A stretch of DNA of 64,000 bases from Peptococcaceae bacterium 1109. GTDB taxonomy: Bacteria > Bacillota > Limnochordia > Darwinibacteriales > Darwinibacteriaceae. The notes beneath the pieces are model-generated. The model ran no database searches and was not told the DNA's origin. It was given only the letters and a program-made list of their open reading frames with translations. The stretch spans positions 110,850 through 174,849 of the forward strand of contig LDJB01000003.1 in the NCBI GenBank assembly GCA_001028815.1, read 5' to 3'. The position numbers and the translations under genes are program-made. Position 1 is the stretch's first letter. Each line of letters begins with the position of its first letter. Positions 4,681 to 31,729 of this stretch are shown piece after piece.

Positions 4681-4694
4681 GGGCCGGCACCTCC

Positions 4695-5615
4695 TCAGCC
4701 TTGGAAGACGGCAAAGGCCGCTCCCTTGACGCCTGCATCTTCTAGATCTGCCCCGCGCCTCAGCTTCCCATTGGGGGCAAGGCGGCTTAGCCCTACCAGG
4801 ATTGGCTCCGCAAAGAGGTGGAGGCTCTTGGCGATGCTGCCTCCAAGGAGAAGGCAGTCGGGCTGAAACCTCTCGATAGGCCCAGCTAAGGCTTCCACGA
4901 ACATCTCTCCCCAAACCTGAAAGAGCTTCTGGCAGGCTGGGCAGCCCCCATCTGCTGCTGCGGCCAGTTCTGCAACATCTAATCCGTGGGGAAGCTCGGG
5001 GGCTTCCCCTTGCCTTTCCTGCCACAGGGTAAGAATCCCCCGGCGGGAGATATAGTCATCCACCCGCCCTGTGCGGTAGGGGAGGTTATATACATATCCG
5101 TTTTCACCAGCGCCAGGCACCGCGCTCTGAACCTGGCCGTCCACAAGGAACGCTGAACCACAGCCCGTGCCCAAGGTGATGGCCATCACCCGCCTAAAGC
5201 CCCGGGCTGCGCCAAACTGCCACTCCCCCAGGGCGAAAGCAGCCGCATCGTTCAAAAAGCGCATGGGCATCCCCTCAGGCAGCCCTAGGCGGCCCCGCAG
5301 TTCAGCCTGAAGGTTAACTCCATACAGTGCATCGTACTTCGCCACATTCTGCATCAGGCTGATACCCTGAGCATAGTCAAAGGGGCCAGGGATCCCCATC
5401 CCTACCCCAACAACGCCTTGGGGGGCAGCTTGCAGAACCGCTGCCATGCCCCTGGCAAGGTTGGCTAGGATGGTGTCTTTATCTTGGTGAGCTTGGGGAT
5501 CGAACTGATGCACAGGGCTTCTGAGCCTGCCCCCTGCATCCACCAGGGCAGCCCTGACTCCGGTGCCCCCCACATCCACCCCCAAAGCCAGGCGTGGTTG
5601 CGCGCAATCGGCCAT
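4695..5615 (-). CDS. ROK-family sugar kinase (glucokinase/mannokinase-like)
   Basis: 306 aa. N-terminal LGVDVGGTGVRAALVD sugar-kinase ATP motif and ITLGTGCGSAFLVDG ROK-like signature. No N-terminal HTH and no canonical CxCGxxGCxE zinc motif. Its stop overlaps the RBS of the GH38 gene. Confidence 0.6.
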   Translation of the reverse strand: MADCAQPRLALGVDVGGTGVRAALVDAGGRLRSPVHQFDPQAHQDKDTILANLARGMAAVLQAAPQGVVGVGMGIPGPFDYAQGISLMQNVAKYDALYGVNLQAELRGRLGLPEGMPMRFLNDAAAFALGEWQFGAARGFRRVMAITLGTGCGSAFLVDGQVQSAVPGAGENGYVYNLPYRTGRVDDYISRRGILTLWQERQGEAPELPHGLDVAELAAAADGGCPACQKLFQVWGEMFVEALAGPIERFQPDCLLLGGSIAKSLHLFAEPILVGLSRLAPNGKLRRGADLEDAGVKGAAFAVFQG

Positions 5616-8876: not shown

Positions 8877-9512
8877 TTGGAACCTGAGAAGCAGCAGCGG
8901 ATCTGGGATGCCGTTTTGCGGGAGTTTGCAGCCAAGGGCTATAGGGATGCGTCCACCAACCGCATCGTAGAGGATGCGGGCATCGGCAAGGGCATGCTCT
9001 TTTATTACTTTAAGAACAAAGCAGAACTGTTTCGTTCCGCTTTAGTATACTGCCTTGACTACATCGAGGAGGAATATGTCCGAAGGCTGGACTTTAGTGA
9101 ACCAGATTTCATTGTCCGCTTCAGCAAGGCAGTGGAAGCCAAAATGGCCGCTTACCTTCGCAACCCGCTGCCCTTTACCTTCCTGGCAAGTTTCCACATC
9201 AACCGAGAAGCGGTTGAGATCGCTCCTGACCTCTATAGCCGGCTGCAGGAGATGGGAAACAAGGGCATGCAGGCCCTCTTTGCTGATGTAGACGTGAGCC
9301 TCTTCCGGGACGACGTTGCCCCTGAGCATATCCTGAACATCATCCGCTGGGTGATGGACGGTTGGAGCCAGGATATTATTGCCCATCTTGAGAGGGAAGC
9401 TTTGTTGGATTATGACTGGGAGTCCACCACTAAGAAGCTCTATGAGCTCTTCGCAGTCCTCAGAAAAGTTCTGTATAAGGAGGTCCAAAATGGCGATTCT
9501 AAAGGTCAGTAA
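8877..9512 (+). CDS. TetR/AcrR-family transcriptional regulator
   Basis: N-terminal IWDAVLREFAAKGYRDASTNRIVEDAGIGKGMLFYYFKNKAELF is a canonical TetR HTH. TTG start per the ORF track. 3' end overlaps the ABC ATPase gene by 23 bp. Confidence 0.85.
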   Translation: MEPEKQQRIWDAVLREFAAKGYRDASTNRIVEDAGIGKGMLFYYFKNKAELFRSALVYCLDYIEEEYVRRLDFSEPDFIVRFSKAVEAKMAAYLRNPLPFTFLASFHINREAVEIAPDLYSRLQEMGNKGMQALFADVDVSLFRDDVAPEHILNIIRWVMDGWSQDIIAHLEREALLDYDWESTTKKLYELFAVLRKVLYKEVQNGDSKGQ

Positions 9513-10374
9513 TGTCACGAAGCAGTTTGGGCACGTCACCGCCTTGGACGGCATCAGCTTTGAGGTTGGCCAAGGTGAAATCTACGGGTTTATCGGGCCT
9601 AATGGCGCGGGAAAGACCACCACAATCCGGATCCTCCTAGGGATCCTCAAAGCCACCAGCGGCTCTGCCCAAATCTTTGGCAGTGATGCATGGCAAGATG
9701 CAGTGGAAATCCACAAGCGGATTGCATATGTCCCAGGGGAAGTAAGCCTCTGGCCCAACCTTACTGGTGGGGAAGTAATCGACCTCTTTCTCAAACTACG
9801 GGGGGCCAACGGCCGACACAGTCGGGATGAACTGATCGAACGCTTTGACTTAGACCCCACCAAGAAATGCGGCACTTATTCCAAGGGTAACCGCCAGAAG
9901 GTCGCGCTCATCGCTGCCTTTGCCGTTGATGCGGAGCTCTATATCCTAGATGAGCCCACCTCGGGGCTGGATCCCTTGATGGAGATCGTTTTCCAGGAAT
10001 GCGTTCGGGAAGTGAAGGCGGCAGGTAAGAGCGTCTTCCTCTCCAGCCACATCCTCTCGGAAGTGGAGAAGCTCTGCGACCGGGTGAGCATTATCCGGCA
10101 AGGGAAAATCATCGAGTCAGGCTCCCTGAGAGAACTGCGCCACCTTACCAGGACTAGGGTTCGGGTGGAAACGGCCAGGCCCATTCAAAACCTGAGCCAA
10201 GTCCCGGGAGTGCATGATGTGGAAGCCTTTGAAAGGGGCGCAGCCTTCCAGGTAGACTCAGAACGGCTAGGCGAAGTCTTGCGGTACATTAGCGACTTTG
10301 ACGTCGTGGCCTTGGAAAGCGCCCCGCCCACCTTGGAAGAGCTGTTCATCCACCACTACCGGAGCTGGAGGTGA
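9490..10374 (+). CDS. ABC transporter ATP-binding protein
   Basis: Walker A GPNGAGKTTT, signature SKGNRQKVALIAAF, Walker B LYILDEPTSGLD. True start is ATG 9490 (MAILKVSNVTKQFG) with AAGGAGG 7 nt upstream; the track ORF from 9379 is over-extended. Confidence 0.85.
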   Translation: MAILKVSNVTKQFGHVTALDGISFEVGQGEIYGFIGPNGAGKTTTIRILLGILKATSGSAQIFGSDAWQDAVEIHKRIAYVPGEVSLWPNLTGGEVIDLFLKLRGANGRHSRDELIERFDLDPTKKCGTYSKGNRQKVALIAAFAVDAELYILDEPTSGLDPLMEIVFQECVREVKAAGKSVFLSSHILSEVEKLCDRVSIIRQGKIIESGSLRELRHLTRTRVRVETARPIQNLSQVPGVHDVEAFERGAAFQVDSERLGEVLRYISDFDVVALESAPPTLEELFIHHYRSWR

Positions 10375-11981
10375 ACAGGTTGCGCCACCTCTTTGCTAAT
10401 ACAGGAACTCTAGCCCGCTTCATCTGGCGGCGAGACCGTGTTCGGCTCCCTGTGTGGGTACTGTCTATCGCGGCGTTCTCCATATGCTTTGCCTCCATGT
10501 TTCCAAGCCTCTACCCCCCGGGGCCAGAGCGGGAGATAATTGCCCAGACCTTTGCCAATCCAGTGTTTATCTCCATGCTCGGTCCCGGCTATGGGCTGGC
10601 TGATTACCACATGGGAGCGATCATGGCCCACCAGATGCTTCTCTTTACTGCGGTGGTTGTGGCCATCATGAACATCCTCCTTACCATCCGCCATTCAAGG
10701 CGGGACGAAGAAGGGGGACGCATTGAGGTCATCCGCTCCCTGCCTGTGGGGAGGCTTGCCAACGCTGCCGCACTTATGCTGGTCCTTGCCGCCGGCAACA
10801 TCGTCTTGGGAATAGCCACCGGGGCAGGCCTGGCTCTCTTGGGCCTGGAAGGGATGGACTGGGCTGGATCGGTGACCTACGGCGCAGTACTGGCCGTTAC
10901 AGGCATGTGTTTTGCCGCCCTCACCCTCGTCTTTGCCCAGCTCACCGAAACGTCCAGGGCTACCATGGGATACGCCTTCGCCTTCTTAGGGCTGTCCTTC
11001 CTGCTCAGGGCAGTAGGTGATGTGAGCAGTGAACCCCTGTCCCTCATCTCCCCCTTAGGGCTGGTCTTGCGGGCACAGGTGTACGTAAGCAATTACTGGT
11101 GGCCCATCTTGATCACGTTTGTGGCTGCAGCAGCCTTGATCCTCCTGGCCTTTCGCCTCAACCTTGTGCGGGACTTGGGTGCAGGGTTCATTCCCGCCAG
11201 GCCAGGCAGAATGCACGCCTCGCCCTTCCTAAAGTGCACCTTAGGCCTTGTCTTCCGCCTGGAAAGGACCGTGATCATCGGCTGGGCCGTAGGCATGTTT
11301 GTCCTGGGGGCATCTTACGGTTCAGTCTTTGGAGAAGTCGAGACCTTTGTCCAAATAGGCGATCTTTACCAGCTGATGCTCCCAAGCGTTGAGGGGTTCT
11401 CCTTCACCGATCAGTTCGTAGCCATGCTCCTCGCGGTGATGTCTATGGCCGCGGCCATCCCCGCGCTCCTCATCATCCTTAAGCTCCGGGGTGAAGAGGG
11501 GGCGGGCCGCACAGAGCACCTCCTCTCCCGAGCTGTGTCCCGGGCCCAGATTATGGGCAGCTTCTTGGCAGCCGCGCTGGGATCCGCGGTAATCATGCAA
11601 GTCCTAAGCGTCCTGGGGCTGTGGTCTGCCGCCGCGGCGGTGGTGAGCGACCCCTTTTCCCTGGGAGAAGCCCTCCTGGCTTCGCTAACATACATCCCTG
11701 TGATCTGGGCCTTAGTGGGGCTGGCTGCGGCGCTCATCGGCTTTGCGCCCCAGCGTACCAACTTGGTCTGGCTCTACTTGGGCTACGCGTTCTTTACAGC
11801 CTACTTCAGAGCCCTGCTCCAGCTCCCTGAGTGGCTGGTTAAACTTACTCCCTGGGGCCACATTCCCAATATCCCCTTGGAAACAGTGAGCCCAGCTACG
11901 GTGGTGCTCATTCTCCTGGCGGCGATCGCCTTGATGGGGCTCGGGTTTGTGGGCTATGCCAAGCGAGACATATCCGGGTAA
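10371..11981 (+). CDS. ABC exporter permease (ABC-2-like, polytopic, 536 aa)
   Basis: Start overlaps the ATPase stop (ATGA-type coupling). About 10-12 predicted TM segments by hydrophobic stretches. Partner of the preceding ATPase. Confidence 0.7.
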   Translation: MNRLRHLFANTGTLARFIWRRDRVRLPVWVLSIAAFSICFASMFPSLYPPGPEREIIAQTFANPVFISMLGPGYGLADYHMGAIMAHQMLLFTAVVVAIMNILLTIRHSRRDEEGGRIEVIRSLPVGRLANAAALMLVLAAGNIVLGIATGAGLALLGLEGMDWAGSVTYGAVLAVTGMCFAALTLVFAQLTETSRATMGYAFAFLGLSFLLRAVGDVSSEPLSLISPLGLVLRAQVYVSNYWWPILITFVAAAALILLAFRLNLVRDLGAGFIPARPGRMHASPFLKCTLGLVFRLERTVIIGWAVGMFVLGASYGSVFGEVETFVQIGDLYQLMLPSVEGFSFTDQFVAMLLAVMSMAAAIPALLIILKLRGEEGAGRTEHLLSRAVSRAQIMGSFLAAALGSAVIMQVLSVLGLWSAAAAVVSDPFSLGEALLASLTYIPVIWALVGLAAALIGFAPQRTNLVWLYLGYAFFTAYFRALLQLPEWLVKLTPWGHIPNIPLETVSPATVVLILLAAIALMGLGFVGYAKRDISG

Positions 11982-15417: not shown

Positions 15418-16590
15418 TCACCTTTCCTTGGCATGTTTTTCCACAAAGCGGGCCATGCGCCGCAGCGCCTCCTGGAGGCTTTCCAGGGAATAGGCATACG
15501 AACAGCGGATAAACCCTTCGCCGCTTTCCCCAAAGGCCGAGCCAGGGACCACGGCCACCCGCTCCTCCATGAGGAGATTGGTGCAGAACTCTTCTGAAGT
15601 CATCCCCAAATCCCTTACCCGGGGGAAAACGTAGAACGCGCCCTTGGGCTCAAAACAAGACAAACCCATGCTGCGGAAGCCCTGTACTAACACCCGGCGG
15701 CGGCGGTTGTATTCCTGCACCATCCGCTCCACTTCAGGCAGCCCGTGCCTTAGTGCTTCCACCGCCGCATACTGGCTCACGGTGGGTGCCGACATGATGG
15801 TATATTGATGGATCTTGGTCATGGCTTGCAGAAGTTCTCGGGGCCCGGCAGCATAACCAAGCCGCCAGCCTGTCATGGCAAAGGATTTGGAGAAGCCGTT
15901 GATCACCAGCGTGCGGTCGTACATCCCAGGGAGGGAAGCCATGGAAACGTGCTCAATGCCATACACCAGCTCGCTGTAGATCTCGTCGGTGATCACCAGT
16001 AAGCGATGCTCTGCTAGAGCCTTAGCAATTTTCTCCAGATCCGCCCGCTCCATCACTGCCCCTGTGGGGTTGTTTGGATAGCACAAGATCACAGCCTTAG
16101 TCTCGGGAGTGATATGGGGAACCAGATCCTCTGCGGTGAGGCGGAACTCCCGCTCCTCGTAAGTAGGCACCGCCACTGGGACTCCCCCGGCCATGATCAC
16201 CGCGGGGCGGTAAGACACGTAGGTGGGTTCGGGAATGATGACTTCGTCCCCGGGGTTAATCAGGGCCCGGAGGGCAAGGTCAATGGCCTCACTCCCCCCC
16301 ACCGTAACCAAGATCTGATCCTTCGGATCGTACTCGAGATGAAAGCGCCGTTCCAGATAGTTTGCGATCTCCACCCTCAGTTCCCACAGCCCCGCATTGG
16401 CGGTGTATGCAGTGCGCTTTTTCTCCAGGGAGTAGATGGCCTCATCCCGGACGTGCCACGGCGTAGCAAAATCTGGCTCGCCCACCCCTAGAGAAATGAC
16501 GTTTTCCATCTGGTTGGCGATATCAAAGAATTTGCGGATCCCCGACGGGTTAACCTCTTGAATGCGTTTGTTGAGCATCTCGCTGATCAT
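15418..16590 (-). CDS. PLP-dependent aminotransferase, class I/II (aspartate/aromatic aminotransferase-like)
   Basis: 390 aa with the LGVGEPDFATP motif and a fold-type I layout. Start overlaps the AsnC gene by 4 bp. Confidence 0.8.
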   Translation of the reverse strand: MISEMLNKRIQEVNPSGIRKFFDIANQMENVISLGVGEPDFATPWHVRDEAIYSLEKKRTAYTANAGLWELRVEIANYLERRFHLEYDPKDQILVTVGGSEAIDLALRALINPGDEVIIPEPTYVSYRPAVIMAGGVPVAVPTYEEREFRLTAEDLVPHITPETKAVILCYPNNPTGAVMERADLEKIAKALAEHRLLVITDEIYSELVYGIEHVSMASLPGMYDRTLVINGFSKSFAMTGWRLGYAAGPRELLQAMTKIHQYTIMSAPTVSQYAAVEALRHGLPEVERMVQEYNRRRRVLVQGFRSMGLSCFEPKGAFYVFPRVRDLGMTSEEFCTNLLMEERVAVVPGSAFGESGEGFIRCSYAYSLESLQEALRRMARFVEKHAKER

Positions 16591-17069
16591 AGCAGTATAT
16601 TCGGCCTTTCATCACTATGATTGCGCCCGAAGAGGCGGCCGTTCTGTTTGAATTTCTTCAAGACAAAGTGCGTTGTACAGCTCACCACCGAGTCCATCAC
16701 CGCGAGCTTGGTGGAGACAAACCGCGCGATATCCTGGATAGTTGCACCTTCTACCAGCACCATAAGGTCGAAGTCGCCAGAAACAAGGAACACCGCCTGT
16801 ACCTCTGGGAACTCAGCAATGCGCAGAGCTGTTTGGTCAAAGCCCGATCCACGTTGGGGAGTAACCTTTACCGCAATATGCGCAGTGACCAGCTCCCGGC
16901 CGGCCTTCTCCCAATCGATAAGGGTGTGGTAGCATACAATCACCCCTTCTTCCTCGAGGCGGCTGATCTCCGCCTGCACCGCTTCTTCAGTAGAATCCAG
17001 CATCACGGCGATTTGGGCAGCGCTGAGGCGGCTGTCCCCTTCTAGAATCTGCAGAATCTCTTGTCGCAA
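16587..17069 (-). CDS. Lrp/AsnC-family transcriptional regulator
   Basis: HTH LSAAQIAVMLDSTEEAVQAEISRLEEEGVI plus a C-terminal RAM domain. 160 aa. Confidence 0.85.
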   Translation of the reverse strand: MRQEILQILEGDSRLSAAQIAVMLDSTEEAVQAEISRLEEEGVIVCYHTLIDWEKAGRELVTAHIAVKVTPQRGSGFDQTALRIAEFPEVQAVFLVSGDFDLMVLVEGATIQDIARFVSTKLAVMDSVVSCTTHFVLKKFKQNGRLFGRNHSDERPNILL

Positions 17070-17156: not shown

Positions 17157-17185
17157 TTGACAGAGTTATCAGAATATTGTACTAT
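17157..17185 (+). promoter_or_regulatory. near-consensus sigma70 promoter: TTGACA, 17 bp, TACTAT
   Basis: -35 TTGACA at 17157-17162 and -10 TACTAT at 17180-17185. RBS AAGGAAGGAG at 17215-17224, then ATG 17231. Confidence 0.5.
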
Positions 17186-17230
17186 GTAGTTGCTAGCAAT
17201 CTGGGCCCAAACTAAAGGAAGGAGATTTGC

Positions 17231-17533
17231 ATGGGGAAGACAATCACTCGTTTCGTCGCCTTGCTCCTCGCCATCACTCTGCTGGTGCCAGTGGGGGCCT
17301 CCGCAGCGGCTGACACTCCCTTCGGCCCTGGGGCGGTACCCTTAAGCGATGCGGAAATGGCGGAAGTGGAAGGGGAATTCAGCCCCTTGGTCACCTCTGC
17401 TGTGGCTGGAGGCCTGATCAGCACCGCATCGTACTTAATCACCACCCCTGCCTCCCAGTGGACATTGGGAGGGGCAGTTCGCCACGCAATCGCCGGCGCC
17501 GTCAGCGGCCTGGCCGGATACTTCCTTCGGTAA
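17231..17533 (+). CDS. small secreted Gly/Ala-rich protein (100 aa) with Sec signal peptide; bacteriocin-like precursor candidate
   Basis: MGKTITRFVALLLAITLLVPVGASAAAD signal peptide, an acidic segment PLSDAEMAEVEGEF resembling the LSxxELxxIxGG double-glycine leader consensus, then a hydrophobic cationic core SPLVTSAVAGGLISTASYLITTPASQWTLGGAVRHAIAGAVSGLAGYFLR. Confidence 0.5.
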   Translation: MGKTITRFVALLLAITLLVPVGASAAADTPFGPGAVPLSDAEMAEVEGEFSPLVTSAVAGGLISTASYLITTPASQWTLGGAVRHAIAGAVSGLAGYFLR

Positions 17534-17544
17534 CATCACATGAA

Positions 17545-17571
17545 GAAGTGTGCCCGCCGGCAGCACACTTC
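17545..17571 (+). other. perfect 9-bp stem hairpin (GAAGTGTGC...GCACACTTC) between the peptide gene and the downstream membrane-protein gene
   Basis: Read directly in the sequence. No U-tract follows, so it is more likely an attenuator or RNA-stability element than a full terminator. Confidence 0.4.
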
Positions 17572-17597
17572 TCACCCCATTAGAAAGGAGCACTCCA

Positions 17598-17912
17598 TTG
17601 TCCACAGGAGAACTTATCCTCGCTTGGGCAGTCCTGTTCATCTTCACAGCGGCGTACGGCCTTTTGCGCCAGGGGAAACTGTCCCGGCAAGTGGTGGCCG
17701 TGGGCCTAGCTGCAGCTACAATCTTGGTGGCTGTGGGGGCAACCTTCCCTACCGAACCTGTAAGCTGGGGAAAGGTACTGATGCGCTGGGTGGTGCACTT
17801 TTCCCTCTTTACACTGGCCATCAGGGCATTTACCCGTTCCCCATGGCGGGACAGCCTAGGAGCTGGTTTCTTCAGCTCCACCTGCCTCACTCTGCTGCAG
17901 ATTCTCCTTTGA
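17598..17912 (+). CDS. small integral membrane protein (~104 aa, 3 predicted TM helices); immunity-protein-like partner of the upstream peptide
   Basis: TTG at 17598 preceded by AAAGGAG at 17584-17590. Hydrophobic segments LILAWAVLFIFTAAYGLL, VVAVGLAAATILVAVGA and WVVHFSLFTLAIRAF. Its 3' end overlaps the convergent EamA gene by 57 bp. Confidence 0.4.
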   Translation: MSTGELILAWAVLFIFTAAYGLLRQGKLSRQVVAVGLAAATILVAVGATFPTEPVSWGKVLMRWVVHFSLFTLAIRAFTRSPWRDSLGAGFFSSTCLTLLQILL

Positions 17913-18767
17913 CCCCTGCTGGAATATTATGAAGATCCCTGTCAGTATTAGTATTCCTCCCAATACTTCTAGGAATGCTGGAGGTTCCTTAAGGAGAATC
18001 ATGGCAAGTAGGGTGGCCCCAAGGGGTTCCCCCAAAATGCTCACGCTCACCATGGAGGTGGGCAAGTATTTTAAAGCCCAGTTTAGGCTGGTATGGCCAA
18101 TTACAGTAGAAACGAACGCCAAGAGAAACAAGCTCCGCCAAGTGCCAGCAGAGTAACCTGTAAGGGGCTGGCGGAAGACGAGGGCTGCGGCCAAAAGGAA
18201 CAGCGCGCTAAAGCCGTAGGCTGCTGCTCCGTAAAGGCCGACCGGGACAGTGCGCCTTACCACTCTGCCCACGAGGAAGTAGCTTGCGGCCATCACCGCT
18301 CCCCCCAGGGCCATGAGGTTGCCCGCGAGGCGGGAAGCCCCCCCTGCATCCCCTGCGAAAGCCACCACAGCGCTGCCTGTAAGGGCCAGAGCCAAACCAG
18401 CCCAGGTCCGGCCTGTAGGGATTTCTCCCAAGAGCAGGGCCCCGAAGACGGTGACAAACACGGGCTGGGTTGTGACCAGCACTACGGAGCTGGTGACGCT
18501 GGTGTGAAACAAGGACGTGTTCCACAAGGCAAAATGGAGGGCAAGAAAGAAACCCGCGAGAGCCAGTACGCCCCAGGGGATTGGGGTGGACTTCATACTC
18601 CGCAGGTCGTAGGCGGCCCAGGGCACCATCAAAAGCGCGGCAAAAGCCATGCGGTAAAAGGCAATCGCGATGGGATCTGCCTCCGCCTGGCGGATAAAGA
18701 CCGCCGCACCGGAAATGGCCAAAACGCCAAAGATGAGAATGAGGCGTACACTTAAGCGGTTGTTCAC
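17856..18767 (-). CDS. EamA/DMT-superfamily transporter
   Basis: 303 aa, 10 TM-like segments, internal duplication typical of EamA. Confidence 0.8.
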   Translation of the reverse strand: MNNRLSVRLILIFGVLAISGAAVFIRQAEADPIAIAFYRMAFAALLMVPWAAYDLRSMKSTPIPWGVLALAGFFLALHFALWNTSLFHTSVTSSVVLVTTQPVFVTVFGALLLGEIPTGRTWAGLALALTGSAVVAFAGDAGGASRLAGNLMALGGAVMAASYFLVGRVVRRTVPVGLYGAAAYGFSALFLLAAALVFRQPLTGYSAGTWRSLFLLAFVSTVIGHTSLNWALKYLPTSMVSVSILGEPLGATLLAMILLKEPPAFLEVLGGILILTGIFIIFQQGSKENLQQSEAGGAEETSS

Positions 18768-19390
18768 TGCTTGTTCTCCTCTTGCTTGCGCAGATACTCC
18801 CGAAGCATGGCCGTGACCACATCCAAGGCCACGGTGTTAAACCCGCCTTCCGGAACGATCAGATCAGCATATTTCTTCGACGGCTCCACAAAGGCTTCGT
18901 GCATGGGCTTAACCGTGTTCAGATACTGCTTCACCACCGATTCCATGGTGCGGCGCCGCTCTGTCACATCCCGCATCAAACGGCGGAGGATGCGTACATC
19001 TGGGTCGGTGTCAATAAACACTTTGATGTCCAGCTCTGCCCTGAGGGCCGGGTCATGGAGGAGCAAGATCCCTTCAACCAAGATGATGGGATAGGGTTCC
19101 ACTTCCACGAATCGATCGGTGCGGGTGTATTCCTTGAAGTCGTAGACAGGTACCCGCACCTTCTCCCCTGCCTTTAGCCGTTGGAGGTGCTCCACCAAGA
19201 GCGCGTTTTCAAAGGCGTCGGGATGGTCGTAGTTGATCTTCACCCGCTGTGCAAAACTAAGGTGTTCGTTGGCATAATAATACGAGTCCTGGGAAATGAT
19301 CACCGAATCATGCCGAATTGCCCTCTGCAGGGATTGGGCAAAAGTGGTCTTTCCCGAACCCGTCCCACCGGCAATACCTACAATTATCAT
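18764..19390 (-). CDS. udk: uridine kinase
   Basis: MIIVGIAGGTGSGKTTFAQSL P-loop and ILVEGILLLHDPALRAELDIKVFIDTD. True ATG at 19390 (208 aa). The track ORF extending to 19972 is an over-extension. Confidence 0.85.
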   Translation of the reverse strand: MIIVGIAGGTGSGKTTFAQSLQRAIRHDSVIISQDSYYYANEHLSFAQRVKINYDHPDAFENALLVEHLQRLKAGEKVRVPVYDFKEYTRTDRFVEVEPYPIILVEGILLLHDPALRAELDIKVFIDTDPDVRILRRLMRDVTERRRTMESVVKQYLNTVKPMHEAFVEPSKKYADLIVPEGGFNTVALDVVTAMLREYLRKQEENKQ

Positions 19391-19492
19391 CACATGTTCA
19401 CCTGTTCTTATCCGTGTTCTTCTGGGGGATTTGTGTTCTCCATCACTGCAAGGATTTCCTTCCCTTGCGTTGAACAATAATCCAGGAAGGGA

Positions 19493-20008
19493 GTGAATGG
19501 CGTGAAAAAGGCTGTATTTATTATTGCGGAACAAAACTTCCGAGACGAGGAATACCAAGTCCCCAAGGAAGTGCTGGAGAAAAGCGGGATAGAAGTTGTC
19601 ACCGCTTCCACCACCACCGGTGAGTGCGTGGGCAAGCTGGGCATGAAGGTTACCCCTGAGATGCTGGTGAAGGACATTGATCCAGCCCAGTTCGATGCTC
19701 TCATCTTCGTGGGCGGCGGCGGCTCGGAGCAGTACTTTAGCGACAAAACCGCACACGAGCTGGCCCATACAGCATATGATCAGGGGAAGATCGTTGGTGC
19801 CATCTGCATCGCCCCGGTGATCCTCGCCAATGCAGGGCTGCTTAAGGGGCGGACAGCTACCGTGTACCCCGACGGCGCGCCCATCCTCAAAGAGCAGGGA
19901 GCCAACTACACCGGCGGCACCGTGGAAGTGGACGGACGGATCATCACTGGCAACGGGCCAGAGGCGGCCCAAGCCTTCGGCGAAAAGCTAGCCCAGCTCC
20001 TCTCGTAG
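19493..20008 (+). CDS. DJ-1/PfpI-family protein
   Basis: AICIAPVILANAGLL with the nucleophile-elbow Cys, preceded by ALIFVGGGGSEQY. GTG start at 19493 per the track; the in-frame GTG at 19502 has a better-spaced RBS. Confidence 0.8.
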   Translation: MNGVKKAVFIIAEQNFRDEEYQVPKEVLEKSGIEVVTASTTTGECVGKLGMKVTPEMLVKDIDPAQFDALIFVGGGGSEQYFSDKTAHELAHTAYDQGKIVGAICIAPVILANAGLLKGRTATVYPDGAPILKEQGANYTGGTVEVDGRIITGNGPEAAQAFGEKLAQLLS

Positions 20009-20041: not shown

Positions 20042-20563
20042 CTATTCTGCGAGGTAACCGCGCCTTTTCAGTTCTGCCAAGATCCTCGCCATGGTGCCTT
20101 CATCAGGGGCCTCAATAGTGTGGAGGTGGAGCCCATCGGTAAGGACCAAGAGGGGCTCTGCCTTTGCTGCCTGCATTTTCCCTACGAACTGCTCCACATC
20201 GGCCATGGTCCGGCATTGGAGGTTGCCGGTCATTTCCCCATAGAGGGGATGTTCCACTGTCACATCAACCACTGCGCCCCCTAGCTCAACCACTACGGCG
20301 AGCTCATCCTTGATTTCCCCCAAATCCTCCGAATGGCGCGCAGCAATGGTCCGCCGCAGGCCGGGCCCCGGCTTTGTTGGATAAAGCAGGTAGCCTTGGG
20401 GCGTGGCCATGATGTTCTCCCCTTGAGCCCGGAGGATTGCAATATCTGCCACCACCACCTGGCGGGTGACGCCAAACTCCTGGCTGAGCTGTGTGCCAGT
20501 TACGGGCTCCTTTGCCTGCTTCAGCACCTTCAGAATCTCTGCACGCCGCTTAGCAGTGCGCAT
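20042..20563 (-). CDS. niaR: NiaR/YrxA-like transcriptional repressor (HTH + 3H domain)
   Basis: 173 aa. N-terminal HTH RRAEILKVLKQAKEPVTGTQLSQEFGVTRQVVVADIAIL and a C-terminal His-containing 3H-type domain (HPLYGEMTG...HLHTIE). Divergent from a small membrane protein, as in niacin regulons. Confidence 0.7.
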   Translation of the reverse strand: MRTAKRRAEILKVLKQAKEPVTGTQLSQEFGVTRQVVVADIAILRAQGENIMATPQGYLLYPTKPGPGLRRTIAARHSEDLGEIKDELAVVVELGGAVVDVTVEHPLYGEMTGNLQCRTMADVEQFVGKMQAAKAEPLLVLTDGLHLHTIEAPDEGTMARILAELKRRGYLAE

Positions 20564-20602
20564 AATTTTCCCTCCACTTTCCCGGCACTTTCTTGCACCT
20601 TA

Positions 20603-20652
20603 ACACCGCTTGGTGTAATATAGTGTATAGTATACAGGTGTATATACAGGTG
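20603..20652. promoter_or_regulatory. candidate NiaR operator region: inverted repeat ACACCgcttGGTGT plus tandem TATACAGGTG-ta-TATACAGGTG
   Basis: Repeats read directly at 20603-20616, 20631-20640 and 20643-20652. ACAGGTG-type half-sites are reminiscent of described NiaR boxes. Confidence 0.4.
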
Positions 20653-20674
20653 CTGCAATACTTTCTGAAAAGGA

Positions 20675-21205
20675 ATGGTGCAAATGCAGAGGCAATCACG
20701 TGTCCGGGAAATGCTTTACGGCGCACTCTTAACAGGAATGGCCATTCTCATCCCTATAGCATTTCGGGGTTGGCTCCAAGTTTACCTGCCGCCCTTTTCC
20801 GCGACCATTGGCAGCCACGTCCCGTCCATGTTGGCTATGGCCATCAGCCCGTGGACCGCGGTCCTGGTGGGGGTAGGCTCAGGATTGGGCTTCCTCATCA
20901 CCCTGGATGCGGTGATCGCCGCCCGGGCCCTCACCCACGCGCTGTTCGGCGCTGCCGGGGCATACCTTATCCGCCGAGGCGTTCCCCTCTGGCAGGCCAT
21001 TCTCATTACCCTGCCCATTCACGCGCTCAGCGAGGCCTTGGTGGTAATGCCCTTCGGCTTTGATCTTTATACATCCTTAGTTGTAGTAGGTGTGGGAACG
21101 GCCCTCCACCACTGCGTAGATGGCCTGATAACCACTGCCCTCTCAGGGGCCCTGGACAAGGCAGGGGTCCCCTTGAGGCTCCAGCCCCGCACCGTAACCC
21201 GCTAA
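20675..21205 (+). CDS. small polytopic membrane protein, putative niacin/vitamin uptake component (NiaX / ECF S-component-like)
   Basis: 176 aa with 5-6 hydrophobic helices. Divergent from niaR and sharing its operator region. Function assigned by synteny only. Confidence 0.4.
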   Translation: MVQMQRQSRVREMLYGALLTGMAILIPIAFRGWLQVYLPPFSATIGSHVPSMLAMAISPWTAVLVGVGSGLGFLITLDAVIAARALTHALFGAAGAYLIRRGVPLWQAILITLPIHALSEALVVMPFGFDLYTSLVVVGVGTALHHCVDGLITTALSGALDKAGVPLRLQPRTVTR

Positions 21206-27353: not shown

Positions 27354-29117
27354 TTATTTCGCTAACGCTTCCTTGAGTGCAAAGGCAAGAAAGCCTGCAC
27401 AGGTCGCAAAGGCTGCCCCGGTCATGCATTCCCCCGTCTCCTCGTGGACGCTTTCGCAGGCGATACCATTATCCAGCTCGGTCCTGCTGAGGTGGCGAAG
27501 GGCTTGCTCCGTGTTGCCGCTCAAGAGGCTGTTGCAGATGGACAACACCCATGGGTGGGGCGCATGCGCACAGCCGATTTCCGCGATGGGCTTGCCCGCG
27601 AAGGAGTACTTGTACTCCGGATCGCGAATCACCGCCACTGTGTTCCGATAGATCTCATCGTAAGCGCTGCAGAACCCATACCACGGCAGAAGCAAGAGGC
27701 TCCCCGGAGGTTCGTCGTAGATGTCCCACGCCCCCTCCAGATCAACTGACCAAGCGAAGACCTTCTTTCCATTGTACACCTTCACGCACTGCTGGTAGAT
27801 GGCATCCTTCACTCGCTGGGCTTCTTCGAGCAGGGGGAGGCCGTAGAGTTCCTGCAGGTCGGTGAGGATCCGCCACACCAAGACGTTATCGTAGGTGAGG
27901 TACTTGTAGGTGTGCATATCGTCGGTGGGCTGGAGGAAGGTTTCGTAAAGGTGGGTTCCTGGGTGCCTCTTAGTCTTAAGGATCCTGAGGATGCGCTCCA
28001 CTCCCCTGCGCACATGGGCCTCCTCCAAAATGATGCGATCCCCCGTCCTGTCCACATAGCGCTTCAAAGCGATAATGGGGGCACACAGCTCATCCAGCTC
28101 AAATCCAGGTTCCAGCACCGTTCCATCAATAAACCTACTGTGAATCCCCACGTTCTTGATCTGCCTGGTAAATGTGTAGTCAAGCATTTCCCTAGCATAC
28201 TCTGGGTCCGCCATCAAGATGGCAGGAAAGCTCCACAGCAAGCTGTCCCGGTCCCAGTAGGCTGCGGAAACGTAGTAGCGGGGGCTCCTGGAGGTAACTA
28301 GGCAGAATTCTTCTGTATCCAAGGTAATGCCTGAGCCAAAGAAGAAGCTAAAGAACATATTGAGATTGAGGAGCTCCTGGAGGTGCTCATGGCCAACCCT
28401 TTGGATGCGCTGGGCCAGCCAGCGCTGGGTCTTGGCATACTCCTCTGCCCATCCCTGGCGAAGCATCTCTTTTGCAGCCGTGCTGGCAGCTACTTCTTCG
28501 TACCCCACACCCCAGTACACATCCAAGGTGGCCTCCTCGCCTGGAGCTAGATGGACCGTGCGGGTGATCTCAAACCGGATGCTGTCGTCCTGGCCGTGGC
28601 TGTACTTCCACTCTGCCTTCTCTGCCATGGGTGCCAGGGAAAACAGGGGAAGCCCGGTGCGAAAATCCATGACGAAGGCGTGGTTCCAACCGCTTGCGTA
28701 GGCGTGCTTTTCACCTTTAACAGGCTTGTTTTCATTCACTGCGTGCCAAACTTCCCCAAAACACCCCTCAAAGCCCAAGCAGACCTCCACAGGGTCACAA
28801 GCCCTCGCTGTTAAGCGGTAGATAAAGCCCCGCTCGCCTAAGGGTGCTAAGATGCACCCTTCGAAGGCGACGCCCTGGCCAGGCCCGGAGAAGCGTGGAA
28901 TCCAGTATTGGTCCCTATCCCAGTTGAGTTCAGCAAAATCCACAGGCTGGCCGTCCACCGCGGCCATGGGCCTGAGGAGGGGTTCCTCCCCCGCTCCCTT
29001 CACATGCAGCATACCCTTGGCCCGCATGTGGAGGAAGGTGAGCCCCTCAAGAGCGCCATCCTCCCTGATGGTTGGCAGGGAGATAAACTCGTTGCTCGTT
29101 ACGTAATACTTGGTCAT
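27354..29117 (-). CDS. (alpha/alpha)6-barrel glycoside hydrolase, GH15-like (glucoamylase/trehalase/GH125-type WxRDS fold)
   Basis: 587 aa with an N-terminal beta-rich region followed by AAYWDRDSLLW (WxRDS motif of GH15-type six-hairpin glycosidases). Start overlaps the GH31 gene by 4 bp. Family assignment is tentative. Confidence 0.45.
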   Translation of the reverse strand: MTKYYVTSNEFISLPTIREDGALEGLTFLHMRAKGMLHVKGAGEEPLLRPMAAVDGQPVDFAELNWDRDQYWIPRFSGPGQGVAFEGCILAPLGERGFIYRLTARACDPVEVCLGFEGCFGEVWHAVNENKPVKGEKHAYASGWNHAFVMDFRTGLPLFSLAPMAEKAEWKYSHGQDDSIRFEITRTVHLAPGEEATLDVYWGVGYEEVAASTAAKEMLRQGWAEEYAKTQRWLAQRIQRVGHEHLQELLNLNMFFSFFFGSGITLDTEEFCLVTSRSPRYYVSAAYWDRDSLLWSFPAILMADPEYAREMLDYTFTRQIKNVGIHSRFIDGTVLEPGFELDELCAPIIALKRYVDRTGDRIILEEAHVRRGVERILRILKTKRHPGTHLYETFLQPTDDMHTYKYLTYDNVLVWRILTDLQELYGLPLLEEAQRVKDAIYQQCVKVYNGKKVFAWSVDLEGAWDIYDEPPGSLLLLPWYGFCSAYDEIYRNTVAVIRDPEYKYSFAGKPIAEIGCAHAPHPWVLSICNSLLSGNTEQALRHLSRTELDNGIACESVHEETGECMTGAAFATCAGFLAFALKEALAK

Positions 29118-31729
29118 TTTCTTTCCTCCACTCTCATGAGCGTGCCTGCAAGGCCTCTGCCACAGAGCTGCACCGCATCGCCTGGAGTGAGAGCATCCAC
29201 CACCAGGACTTCCTTCACCGGCCCTGTACCTCTCACCGTGCCCCCATTGTATTCTAAGTCATTGCCTAGATCGTCTTGGAACCCCAGGGCATCGCCCCCA
29301 AAGCACAGGAAGGCCAAGATTTCGTACCCATCTAGCTTGTTGGATACGCCGCCCTGAGGCGAGCAGGCCCCCATGATGCGGGCTTTGTTTAGGTGGACAG
29401 GCAAGACTGCTCCGTCACGCACAAACAGGGGGACTTGGTGAAGTGGGCAGGTATAGTCGATCTCCCTTCCTCCGGTGAACACTTCTCCGGTGAAGAAATC
29501 GTGCCACGTGCCCTGGGGAAGGTACACCCGCCGCCCTTCTGCCCCTTCCTCCAGCACAGGGGCGACTAGCAGATCCCTGCCGAACATGTACTGGTCGTGC
29601 ACGGTCCATGCCCGGGAGTCCTCGGGGTAATCGATGGCTAGGTGAGCCATGAGGGGCCGAGCGGACTGGGCGCAGTGGACTGCTTCCTGGTAGATATATG
29701 GGAGGAGGTTCATGCGCAGGTTGGCAAAGAGCCGGTACACCTCCATGACTTCTGGATCGTTATACAGATCAGCAATGTTCCACGGGCTGCGGTCGTTGAC
29801 CCACCGGGCACGGTCGGTGTAGAAGAACTGGCCGCTCCGGGGCTCTGCGTGCCACTGCATCACAGGGCTGAGCGCGGCGAAGGCGGTGGAGCGCTTGTAA
29901 AGCTCGGGGCTGGGGAAATCCCCCGCGAATCCGGCCATATCAAAGCTCCAGAAGGGGATGCCGGACAGGCCTGCGGAAAGGCCAGCTGTCATCTGAGCCC
30001 GCAGTTCACTCCATGTGCTTCTCTGGTCCCCTGCCCAATGGATGGGCACGGTTTGGGCCCCTGTATGGCCTGCCCGGGAGAAGGTGATGCCGTCCTCTAG
30101 GTGCTCCCGGAGAAAGCCGTGGTAAGCCCTAATGTACTGCATGGGGTACTCATTGTGGGCAGTGTCCCCTAATTGGCCGTCGTACGTTTTTGTGGTATCG
30201 CCAAAGAGGAACTCTCCCCCGTCGGTCTTAAAACCCTTTACCCCTAGGTCTTTCACAAGGTAGGCTCGCTTATCAAACCACCACTTAACCGCCTCAGGAT
30301 TGGTAAAATCCAGGAGCAAACTGCCCTTAAACCAATTCTCTGGGATGCGGTAAGGAGTGCCGTCTTCGTTTAGAACGCAGTATCCCATCTTGATGGCATA
30401 GGCCTCATCGTCTTGAAGCTGCTGGCACGCATCGGGGGTGTACTTAATCACAGGGATCTGCCATAAAACAAGGTTTAAGCCCGCCTTTCGCACCGCCTCA
30501 GCCATGAGTTTGGGATCGGGCCACTTCCCACCTTCAGGGAAGTTGAAATCTGCCAAGCGGATGGGCCGATCTTGGGGAAGGGGCTCATACTGGGCATCGT
30601 TGAAGATGTAGAAGGTATGTTCATCGCTCCATGCCTCGAGCACCATGGCAGTGGCAGGCAGTTCATATTGCTCTAGGGCCTTAAGCTGCTCTAAGGTTTC
30701 TTCTTGAGTGTTCCAGCCGTTCGCGGAGATCCAAAGCCCTAAAGCCCACTTCGGGGGAAGCACAGCTTTGCCTGTGAGGCGGTGTAGATCTTTTAGCAGG
30801 GACTGGGGGCTGCCGAAAAGCCACCATTCCTCATACAGCACACCTTGGGGGGCGGTGCGGCACTCTAGGGTAAGCCCTGAGGCCCCATGGTAGGTGATCA
30901 AGCGCTTACTGCTGGAATACCAACCGAAGCCCAGGTCTGTAAGGAAAAATGGGATGGGGATGTAGCTGTACTCTCCTTGGCTGGTGAACTTCTCCACAAC
31001 CGAAAGGACAGTGCTGAGGCCCTTTTGGTCCACTTGGTTGAAGCGCTCCCCTAGCCCGAAGATGTGCCTGACAGGGGTTTGTACGTGGTACTTAATCTCC
31101 CGCACCGACCCGTCTTTAGCGCACAAGAGCTCTAGCTCCGCAAAATCCACCTGCACAAGTGCTGCGCCTTCCCGCCGTACTTCCCATCCTGCACCGGTAA
31201 TCTCCAGGGTCTCTGCAGGGGAAAGCTGAACCTTCACTGACTCCACAGCTTCCCCTGGCGCTGCCCCATCCTTTTCCAATACCCGAATGCGAAGGCCGTT
31301 ATCCCAGCTGAACTCCACAGCTGTTTCGGGGAAAATAGCCCAAGCGCTGTTCTCTCCCTGGTACAACAGGGCAGGCGCGCTAAGCCCCCTGCGCTCGACG
31401 ACGGAGAAGTTGTAATACGGAGTGACTTCCACCTCAGTACTGCCTTCCACAGAAAAGCGGTAGCTCACATCTGCCAACTCGTGAAAGGGCCCCAGGGAGA
31501 AAGAGAAGTAGTGGGAATCCTGGGCGGCCCCTTGGAAAGCCTCCCCCGGGACGGGGGGCATGGGGCTGCCGTCCTGTCTCCACTCAAGGACAGCCCGCAC
31601 TGGGCTCTCCGCCCCTTCTACCTTAATTTGGACTACTACCTCTTCACCTTTTAGGGGCATGTAGGGCCTGCGCTGAAAGGCGCAGTCCTGGATGGGTTCT
31701 AGCCCAGGGGGTACGTGCTTGATCTGCAT
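29114..31729 (-). CDS. glycoside hydrolase family 31 (alpha-glucosidase / alpha-xylosidase-like)
   Basis: 871 aa. GVKGFKTDGGEF (GH31 nucleophile region, compare GxDGxWxDMNE) and IPFWSFDMAGF (GH31 acid/base region). Confidence 0.7.
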   Translation of the reverse strand: MQIKHVPPGLEPIQDCAFQRRPYMPLKGEEVVVQIKVEGAESPVRAVLEWRQDGSPMPPVPGEAFQGAAQDSHYFSFSLGPFHELADVSYRFSVEGSTEVEVTPYYNFSVVERRGLSAPALLYQGENSAWAIFPETAVEFSWDNGLRIRVLEKDGAAPGEAVESVKVQLSPAETLEITGAGWEVRREGAALVQVDFAELELLCAKDGSVREIKYHVQTPVRHIFGLGERFNQVDQKGLSTVLSVVEKFTSQGEYSYIPIPFFLTDLGFGWYSSSKRLITYHGASGLTLECRTAPQGVLYEEWWLFGSPQSLLKDLHRLTGKAVLPPKWALGLWISANGWNTQEETLEQLKALEQYELPATAMVLEAWSDEHTFYIFNDAQYEPLPQDRPIRLADFNFPEGGKWPDPKLMAEAVRKAGLNLVLWQIPVIKYTPDACQQLQDDEAYAIKMGYCVLNEDGTPYRIPENWFKGSLLLDFTNPEAVKWWFDKRAYLVKDLGVKGFKTDGGEFLFGDTTKTYDGQLGDTAHNEYPMQYIRAYHGFLREHLEDGITFSRAGHTGAQTVPIHWAGDQRSTWSELRAQMTAGLSAGLSGIPFWSFDMAGFAGDFPSPELYKRSTAFAALSPVMQWHAEPRSGQFFYTDRARWVNDRSPWNIADLYNDPEVMEVYRLFANLRMNLLPYIYQEAVHCAQSARPLMAHLAIDYPEDSRAWTVHDQYMFGRDLLVAPVLEEGAEGRRVYLPQGTWHDFFTGEVFTGGREIDYTCPLHQVPLFVRDGAVLPVHLNKARIMGACSPQGGVSNKLDGYEILAFLCFGGDALGFQDDLGNDLEYNGGTVRGTGPVKEVLVVDALTPGDAVQLCGRGLAGTLMRVEERK

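Follow-up and report, generated by a model that had tools for sequence, protein, structure and literature searches.

What does a short gene for a secreted peptide do when it is followed by an RNA hairpin and by a gene for a small membrane protein? The question is raised by positions 17157-17912 of a 64-kb stretch of DNA (the window, by which we mean the whole stretch analyzed) from 'Peptococcaceae bacterium 1109', an uncultured bacterium of biogas reactors and a member of the class Limnochordia. A first-pass annotation, made from the sequence alone, had proposed a bacteriocin/immunity-like pair. Our best explanation, which we hold tentatively, is that the first open reading frame (ORF-A) encodes a bacteriocin-like peptide, a glycine-zipper hairpin that would be exported by Sec and derived from a double-glycine leader precursor, that the second (ORF-B) encodes an immunity-like protein, and that the two would form an accessory cassette for competition.

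On the plus strand the order is promoter, ORF-A, hairpin, and ORF-B, and an EamA gene converges on them from the minus strand. The promoter, both ribosome-binding sites (RBSs), the 100-aa ORF-A, the hairpin with its 9-bp stem, the 104-aa ORF-B, and its 57-bp overlap with the EamA gene had all been described by the first-pass annotation, and we recovered each of them in the same place. The features, with the evidence for each, are as follows (AF2, AlphaFold2; dN/dS, ratio of nonsynonymous to synonymous substitution rates; the window clade is the clade to which the window belongs).

17157-17185, plus strand: sigma-70-type promoter TTGACA-17-TACTAT, with the -35 box TTGACA at 17157-17162, a 17-nt spacer at 17163-17179, and the -10 box TACTAT at 17180-17185 (consensus scan and conservation in both clades)
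17192-17208, plus strand: palindromic hexamers of the 5′ untranslated region (5′UTR), GCTAGC(A) at 17192-17198 and GGGCCC at 17203-17208 (invariance in 6-8 lineages)
17217-17224, plus strand: ORF-A RBS, GGAAGGAG (direct sequence reading; conserved in alignments)
17231-17533 including the stop, plus strand: ORF-A, a 100-aa pre-pro-peptide with its ATG at 17231 (8 close homologues, dN/dS)
17231-17311, plus strand: Sec-type signal peptide, residues 1 to about 25-27 (inspection, hydropathy, AF2 helix)
17312-17377, plus strand: acidic pro-region to residue 49, with a PFG motif and the helix PLSDAEMAEVEGE (family alignment)
17378-17530, plus strand: 51-aa core F50-R100; a peptide with its N-terminus at F50 is FSPLVTSAVAGGLISTASYLITTPASQWTLGGAVR (AF2, composition, Rhs homology)
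17545-17571, plus strand: intercistronic hairpin GAAGTGTGC-N9-GCACACTTC (fold, conservation)
17584-17590, plus strand: ORF-B RBS, AAAGGAG (direct reading; GAAAGGA invariant in the window clade)
17598-17912, plus strand: ORF-B, 104 aa, TTG start (the relative P0009 begins at the same start)
17856-18767, minus strand: EamA gene (PF00892, E 3e-39), with a 57-nt overlap with the 3′ end of ORF-B

Architecture of the ORF-A precursor

ORF-A is a real gene, because its dN/dS ranges from 0.07 to 0.17. The signal peptide was called by inspection and hydropathy; judged by eye, the features of the Sec signal peptide claimed by the first-pass annotation are present, namely an n-region with K3 and R7, an h-region with a mean Kyte-Doolittle (KD) value of 2.34, and an ASA or AAA cleavage site at residues 23-27. 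An AF2 helix spanning residues 2-25 coincides with it, and the signal-peptide property is kept among relatives while the sequence itself diverges. Neither a lipobox nor a twin-arginine motif was found in this segment, which also lacks Cys.

The pro-region that follows carries a net charge of -6 and an invariant PFG motif, and it ends in a leader-like motif, LSDAEMAEVEGE (residues 38-49), that places L at -12, E at -8, M at -7, V at -4, and G at -2. Double-glycine leaders are defined by L, E, M/L, V/I, and G at those positions. The motif occurs only once among all six-frame ORFs of the window, and L38, E42, and G48 are invariant or nearly so in the ORF-A family. In eight sister lineages Gly-Ala precedes an aromatic residue at +1, which is a canonical C39 site.

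The core, given as 49 aa by the first-pass annotation, measures 51 aa when counted after Gly48-Glu49, and it is the most conserved part of ORF-A. It has a net charge of +2 plus one His, consists to 53% of Gly, Ala, Ser, and Thr, and contains eight small-xxx-small motifs, a turn motif YLITTPxSxW, and a conserved R84. AF2 modeled a helical hairpin with helices at 40-71 and 79-99 and a pLDDT (predicted local distance difference test score) of about 90 in the core. The first core helix has a KD mean of 1.45, a borderline stop-transfer hydrophobicity, and the second is amphipathic (KD 1.10, hydrophobic moment 0.86).

Relatives of ORF-A and links to toxins

ORF-A had no family match in Pfam, NCBIfam, PADLOC, PHROGs, or a PDB sequence profile search, and a Foldseek comparison of ORF-A with the PDB likewise gave no match (best E 1.3). 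A word-based search returned only eight close relatives, which come from biogas or digester metagenomes and are without exception hypothetical proteins; the names within the ORF-A clusters are 'Limnochordia bacterium' and 'Peptococcaceae bacterium 1109'. When 1.84 billion representative proteins were searched with a profile, no more than 30 hits were obtained at E <= 1e-3. Its members follow a common plan, consisting of a signal peptide, PFG, an acidic L(S/T)xxE(M/L)xEV(E/D)G helix, an aromatic residue, a Gly/Ala-rich helix, a YLxTTPxSxW turn, and a final helix G..R.A.AGAVSG. A locus scan made with the 150-aa subgroup yielded one locus only.

Several members of this family connect it with known toxins. 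Five of 32 match Bacteriocin_IIc (PF10439) at E <= 0.1, all below threshold. The best score belongs to P0019 (25.0 bits against a gathering threshold of 27.1; E 1.8e-5; profile positions 7-58 of 59), which retains a signal peptide, has a Gly-Gly site, and aligns to Bacteriocin_IIc over both leader and core. In P0028, related to the profile of the close clade with an hhalign probability of 96.7%, a 31-aa leader ending in EVNGG is a true Gly-Gly leader; a signal peptide is excluded there by an upstream stop codon on the contig, and the gene is followed by an uncalled 90-aa ORF with three transmembrane (TM) segments. The acidic helix of ORF-A aligns with this leader of P0028, as it does in relatives with the leader part of Bacteriocin_IIc.

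A second connection leads to Rhs proteins. In P0036 and P0037 a hairpin homologous to the ORF-A core stands immediately after the end of the Rhs core (PVTEIDPDG); across 45 columns the ORF-A core and the C-terminal segment of P0037 (residues 106-150) are 47% identical, and hhalign relates them with a probability of 95.5%. Behind its hairpin, P0037 continues with a pretoxin-HINT domain (E 4.6e-15) and a URI/GIY-YIG-like nuclease tail; in this order the hairpin may not be the toxin itself but a membrane-entry module that serves the nuclease.

A third connection concerns processing. Two divergent loci of gammaproteobacterial type, L015 and L062, encode clearly homologous precursors bearing signal peptides, for example P0027 (...LSEQEMRETEGAFW...YLWSTPVSQWSLSGTGR...). 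The cluster common to both (L015, 247-3870; L062, 380-3730) comprises a Phenol_MetA_deg barrel (27 bits), the precursor, one or two small TM proteins, a DUF2059-like protein, and a Peptidase_C39 (73-74 bits) with its own signal peptide. The best NCBIfam match of this peptidase is FapD, at 72 bits against an equivalog cut-off of 330, and it is also similar to FilB; the outer-membrane barrel has a marginal likeness to FapF, below the equivalog cut-off. The cluster may reveal a substrate class for periplasmic C39 peptidases.

In every context examined (L011, L015, L016, L017, and L062) a small polytopic membrane ORF comes after the relative of ORF-A. The three such ORFs from L011, L015, and L016 showed no homology to ORF-B (hhalign below 2%). 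A partner whose position is fixed and whose sequence is not conserved is typical of immunity genes. The first-pass annotation had named widespread housekeeping homologues without a partner gene as a finding that would speak against it; what we found is a tiny family in which every relative examined has a partner.

Some weaker matches were set aside. An Ntox14 identity of ORF-A (Pfam E 0.13) was rejected, as the match is shared by only 2 of 20 members and Ntox14 is a domain of alpha+beta type (PMC3482391), and matches to DUF7534 were confined to the signal peptide. ORF-A itself did not match the glycine-zipper families PF05433, PF13441, and PF13488, to which single relatives are weakly similar (E 0.01-0.08). 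In the non-syntenic L011 (3230-5324), the ORF-A homologue adjoins a gene for an extracytoplasmic function (ECF) sigma factor and is immediately preceded, on its own strand, by an ABC-2 transporter pair.

ORF-B as the membrane partner

ORF-B had been described as a three-TM protein; we count four hydrophobic helices instead, from hydropathy (KD means 2.0, 2.3, 1.5, and 1.5) and from an AF2 model that was built on a two-sequence alignment and, at a pLDDT of 57, was used for the helix count only. It had no match in PADLOC or PHROGs. A Tim17 identity (Pfam E 0.0047) was rejected, as only one of nine B proteins matches. Its dN/dS is 0.16-0.39, so that ORF-B too is a real gene, and across nine sequences only W10, A40, P51, and W64 are invariant, none of them suggestive of catalysis. 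ORF-B is a non-enzymatic, fast-evolving membrane protein and the dedicated partner of ORF-A, and it most likely behaves like an immunity protein.

Inheritance of the cassette in Limnochordia

ORF-A and ORF-B occupy a single chromosomal slot in all relatives down to 36% identity. The order in this slot is aminotransferase (with the AsnC-family gene in the window clade), A, B, EamA, uridine kinase, DJ-1, NiaR-like regulator, membrane protein, aldo-keto reductase, and RmuC; GC content is flat across the region, and the cassette is present in single copy.

Within this stable frame the two genes diverge together and rapidly. At six loci, identity to the window is approximately 88, 88, 82, 80, 65, and 65% for the flanking genes, 84, 73, 72, 62, 38, and 36% for ORF-A, and 66, 66, 50, and 43% for ORF-B, which is undetectable by similarity at the last two. 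Between pairs of 13 lineages the distance averages 0.53 in A and 0.69 in B, compared with 0.24 in the neighboring aminotransferase, and the partial correlation of A with B, controlled for the aminotransferase, is 0.48. The flanking genes have a dN/dS of 0.03-0.12, against the 0.07-0.17 of A and the 0.16-0.39 of B.

A metagenome scan anchored on a downstream lineage-specific gene added 44 further loci to the earlier ones. In the two sets together the slot is fully covered in 21 lineages, of which 14 carry both A and B and seven lack both; neither gene was ever present alone. The absences are interspersed on the aminotransferase tree, and three empty slots keep the upstream region as far as the -35 box and then break off (L031, 4590-4800; L049, 5185-5400; L037, 5525-5700), the last of them also missing the EamA gene. 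The joint presence and absence, the interspersed losses, and the deletion scars together indicate that the cassette is ancestral and dispensable, that it behaves as a unit, and that it has been lost by deletion on at least four occasions.

Transcription signals and the intercistronic hairpin

A consensus scan of 2 kb gave one promoter-like match against 0.8 expected, which by itself is chance level. The promoter is nevertheless real, because it is conserved between clades in spite of saturated synonymous sites (dS > 1 even among the closest five lineages): the -35 box, most of the spacer, the -10 box, the two 5′UTR hexamers, and the ORF-A RBS are invariant or nearly so in two clades (six lineages for the promoter). 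Remnants of the -35 box also survive at the deletion scars. ORF-A and ORF-B share this strong promoter and would be co-transcribed. The spacer, TTATCAGAATATTGTA, is nearly as conserved as the -35 and -10 hexamers and is partly palindromic, reading ACAAT-N9-ATTGT in most lineages, which suggests an operator overlapping the promoter. No second copy of the promoter motif or of the spacer was found within the window. As the hairpin sequence is also unique there, neither the promoter motif nor the hairpin is a repeat element or a regulon signal within these 64 kb.

In the 5′UTR, GCTAGCA and GGGCCC are invariant in all lineages of both clades, with a gap of 4-8 nt between them. RNAalifold found no conserved RNA fold of the 5′UTR, Rfam gave no match at the locus under permissive thresholds or across the whole window, and no tRNA genes were found in the window. 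The palindromic hexamers could be protein-binding or processing sites. An AsnC/Lrp-family regulator gene (16587-17069, minus strand) is divergent from ORF-A and confined to the window clade. We rejected it as the regulator of the promoter, since sister clades without the AsnC gene, where the aminotransferase lies directly upstream, keep the promoter.

Directly after the ORF-A stop lies a hairpin with a perfect 9-bp stem (10 bp with a flanking A-T pair) and a 9-nt loop. Its fold energy is -17.5 kcal/mol, with a z-score of only -1.7 relative to shuffled sequences. In the five lineages of the window clade all 27 nt are invariant save two loop positions. Sister clades have a different hairpin at the same place, either CCCAGG-tetraloop-CCTGGG or GAGCCCGG...CCGGGCTC; the outer pairs have changed in a compensatory way (covariation), and the loops are GNRA-like. 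A GC-rich hairpin is thus present in 13 of 14 lineages, L014 being the one without, and the layout of gene, hairpin, and small membrane gene that the first-pass annotation had emphasized is kept to the same extent. It is not a canonical intrinsic terminator, because no U-tract ever follows. We infer that it acts as an RNA 3′-end stabilizer or as a partial barrier that raises the A:B ratio.

Toxin or resident membrane protein

If ORF-A is a toxin precursor, its path might be as follows. The precursor would be exported by Sec and the signal peptide removed. The acidic pro-helix would hold the cationic hairpin inactive until an extracytoplasmic protease cuts near Gly48; in the gammaproteobacterial-type relatives this protease would be the FapD-like exported C39 peptidase. 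The freed hairpin, after escape through the outer membrane, would enter a cytoplasmic membrane from its outer face, oligomerize via the small-xxx-small motifs, and dissipate the membrane potential. ORF-B would bind the hairpin in the producer membrane and so neutralize it, blocking insertion or depolarization, while the mRNA hairpin would protect or partly terminate the ORF-A transcript, giving more A than B.

A number of observations weigh against this proposal. The double-glycine-like motif of the first-pass annotation held up in that it is conserved across the family and is no chance match, but its last residue did not: position -1 is Glu, not Gly, throughout the window clade. The site is therefore a non-canonical double-glycine site, and it argues against canonical C39 cleavage in the window lineage. 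AF2 joins the leader-like helix and the first core helix into one continuous helix. No match to any bacteriocin family, PF10439 included, was obtained for ORF-A at E <= 1, and the Bacteriocin_IIc matches of its relatives stay under the Pfam threshold. The idea of a bacteriocin/immunity-like pair thus fared unevenly: relatives close to Bacteriocin_IIc and the joint gain or loss of A and B speak for it, while ORF-A itself fits no bacteriocin model.

The genomic setting points the same way. Long vertical inheritance at one slot, with flanks down to 65% identity, shows the cassette not to be mobile, which makes it a less typical bacteriocin locus; homologues of ORF-A on plasmids or phages were not found, nor were orphan immunity genes. 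Both A and B are under purifying, not diversifying, selection, and their protein accessions were not mentioned in the literature searched or in metaproteome supplements. According to a statement in PMC11456536 that cites Taib et al. 2020, Limnochordia possess an outer membrane; with a diderm host class, Sec export alone would leave ORF-A in the periplasm, not in the medium. A C39 domain was found neither in the 64-kb window (tblastn) nor in the gene lists of the syntenic loci, and no obvious exporter or barrel was seen in those lists or in the ten window ORFs scanned with Pfam, most window ORFs lying outside that scan. The export and C39 genes missing from the parts examined are the main gap of a toxin reading at this locus, and Glu at -1 is the second.

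Many of the same observations would suit a protein that stays in the membrane. Here the ORF-A hairpin, left in the cytoplasmic membrane of the producer once the signal peptide is cut off, N-out and C-out with an acidic periplasmic tail, would form a resident complex with ORF-B, a small, domesticated, and dispensable envelope or stress module of bacteriocin-like ancestry that is a weapon no longer; we consider this, the main rival, somewhat unlikely. Vertical inheritance at a core-genome slot, single copy number, flat GC, and purifying selection on both genes agree with it, as do a strong promoter that every lineage examined has kept (no gene for a dedicated regulator being seen beside the cassette), the diderm host, and the lack of an exporter or protease in the examined parts of the window. 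In the protein, a basic residue after the turn (R84 or K) suits a cytoplasmic loop, the first core helix has borderline stop-transfer hydrophobicity (KD 1.45), and Glu at -1 together with the continuous AF2 helix speaks against cleavage. However, the second helix is amphipathic, and its polarity is too high for an ordinary TM segment; small hairpin membrane proteins, moreover, do not commonly carry a cleavable signal peptide (general knowledge). At least four independent deletions mark the cassette as dispensable, homologues of the core occur within Rhs toxins, behind true Gly-Gly leaders, and in clusters that include export machinery, and the partners of distant homologues are not homologous, which is unusual for a structural complex.

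The first-pass annotation had also allowed for an abundant envelope or sheath component. In this version ORF-A would be the building block of a surface fiber or sheath, handled in a Fap-like manner, and ORF-B an assembly or anchoring factor. The peptidase linked to the relatives is indeed nearest to FapD/FilB and the barrel weakly FapF-like, and a strong promoter with a stabilizing hairpin would suit an abundant product. Yet the FapD likeness reaches only 72 bits of the 330 at the cut-off, the FapF likeness is marginal, and no FapD- or FapF-like genes lie beside the Limnochordia cassette. The core is confidently an alpha-helical hairpin in AF2, not a set of beta or amyloid repeats, and has no Asn/Gln-rich repeats; with the repeated loss of the cassette and the homology to an Rhs toxin module, we regard a fibril subunit as improbable.

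Least probable is a signaling pro-peptide, in which the cleaved acidic or core peptide would be a pheromone that is sensed by ORF-B or by way of it: peptide pheromones, too, can have double-glycine leaders (general knowledge) and the distant homologue in L011 lies beside an ECF sigma factor gene, but the conserved neighborhood contains no histidine kinase or response regulator, the most conserved part is a 51-aa glycine-zipper hairpin that is toxin-like and not pheromone-like, and ORF-B has no sensor-like domain and only four invariant residues.

Comparison with known systems

The bacteriocin-like reading of ORF-A brings it closest to class II bacteriocins (PF10439, class IIb-like GxxxG peptides, and class II microcins). 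A class II double-glycine peptide has an LSxxELxxIxGG leader, is cleaved after GG, GA, or GS, and usually has a C39 exporter of the ATP-binding cassette (ABC) type in its locus. ORF-A shares the L/E/M-L/V-I/G leader positions, a core that is Gly/Ala-rich, cationic, helical, and furnished with small-xxx-small motifs, and a small membrane gene directly downstream, and its relatives score just under the PF10439 threshold. Unlike class II bacteriocins, its leader-like segment is not N-terminal and lies behind a Sec signal peptide, hence outside the cytoplasm; it has no hidden Markov model (HMM) match and has Glu at -1, no peptidase-containing ABC transporter was found nearby, and the locus is chromosomal, vertically inherited, and in a diderm Firmicute. 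As there is no HMM match, the leader is not N-terminal, and no C39 transporter was found in the window or in the gene lists of the syntenic loci, we do not place ORF-A in Bacteriocin_IIc; we class it instead as a bacteriocin-like peptide with an immunity-like partner.

Among Sec-dependent systems, SdpC/SdpI of Bacillus subtilis and the enterocin P type resemble the cassette as proposed here (general knowledge) in export by a signal peptide, in additional proteolysis that would release a hydrophobic, membrane-active product, and in a polytopic membrane protein for immunity. SdpC/SdpI differs in that there is no sequence similarity and that SdpI signals through SdpR, no such regulator being present at the ORF-A cassette. 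Enterocin P-type peptides have no pro-region between the signal peptide and the mature peptide. ORF-A differs from the enterocin P/lactococcin 972 type in its conserved 23-aa pro-region and in having no Pfam or NCBIfam bacteriocin match.

Polymorphic toxins offer a further parallel. Their membrane-depolarizing modules, such as the pore former Tse5-CT from an Rhs C-terminus, the CdiA-CT ionophores with the small membrane protein CdiI, and Tox-WTIP, are short, helical, and of glycine-zipper type and act from the periplasmic face, and their immunity proteins are small, polymorphic integral membrane proteins (PMC11630599, PMC3482391). The likeness of ORF-A to these three is by description only and not by sequence comparison, whereas its core is homologous to the segment after the Rhs core in P0036 and P0037. 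ORF-A differs in being a stand-alone 100-aa peptide with no Rhs, CdiA, or type VI secretion system context.

The Fap system of Pseudomonas secretes amyloid with the help of the periplasmic C39 peptidase FapD, whose substrate is unknown, and the outer-membrane channel FapF (PMC5557850). The L015 and L062 precursors are comparable in being Sec-exported and clustered with a C39 peptidase that bears a signal peptide and with an outer-membrane barrel. They differ in that these substrates are helical glycine-zipper peptides with a canonical leader-like site and not amyloid repeats, and no such genes flank the window cassette or its syntenic relatives.

More broadly, ORF-A might stand for a class of double-glycine-type pro-peptides that has not been described before: they would leave the cytoplasm through Sec and be matured beyond it, in diderms by exported FapD-like C39 peptidases, the product being a glycine-zipper hairpin toxin that Rhs proteins also use as their first C-terminal module. 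In that case no bacteriocin-like system would have been proposed for diderm Firmicutes before the Limnochordia cassette. We put this generalization forward as a doubtful one.

A double-glycine leader is normally read inside the cell by the peptidase of an ABC transporter. If the bacteriocin-like reading is true, the ORF-A precursor unites a Sec signal peptide and a double-glycine leader, two export logics that are usually separate. It would also suggest what exported FapD-like C39 peptidases cleave, giving a first clear substrate type for this peptidase class, and small secreted bacteriocins would be tied to the entry or pore modules of large Rhs toxins by one and the same helical hairpin. In agricultural biogas plants 'Peptococcaceae bacterium 1109' belongs to the most abundant organisms (PMC6731289), and a competition factor kept in some lineages and deleted in others could affect community structure. 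Should the hairpin prove to be resident in the membrane, the cassette would be a small lineage-specific membrane complex of modest interest.

Neighborhood of the cassette

About 5 kb upstream of ORF-A, positions 8877-11981 (plus strand) encode a TetR regulator, a DrrA-like ABC ATPase, and a 536-aa membrane protein, a linkage that is not conserved. Downstream, the ORF at 18764-19972 (minus strand, 402 aa) is over-extended; the conserved uridine kinase (PRK family) has 208 aa and starts at 19390, as in all relatives. At 20042-21205 a NiaR-like regulator (HTH_11 + 3H) adjoins a conserved 176-aa polytopic membrane protein without a Pfam family, possibly a vitamin or niacin transporter, whose gene is a good lineage-specific anchor for Limnochordia contigs. 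Some sister lineages have extra genes near the slot (L014, 6555-8077; L010, 1261-1641), one of them STIV_B116-like, and in L014 a 159-aa protein with a weak Gly_zipper (PF26273) match is encoded between uridine kinase and DJ-1. The window is also rich in glycoside hydrolases (GH38, GH125, and GH31) and contains a ROK-family gene (1792-5025; 27357-31729, minus strand), and this wealth of glycoside hydrolases fits a polysaccharide- or mannoside-degrading lifestyle in digesters.

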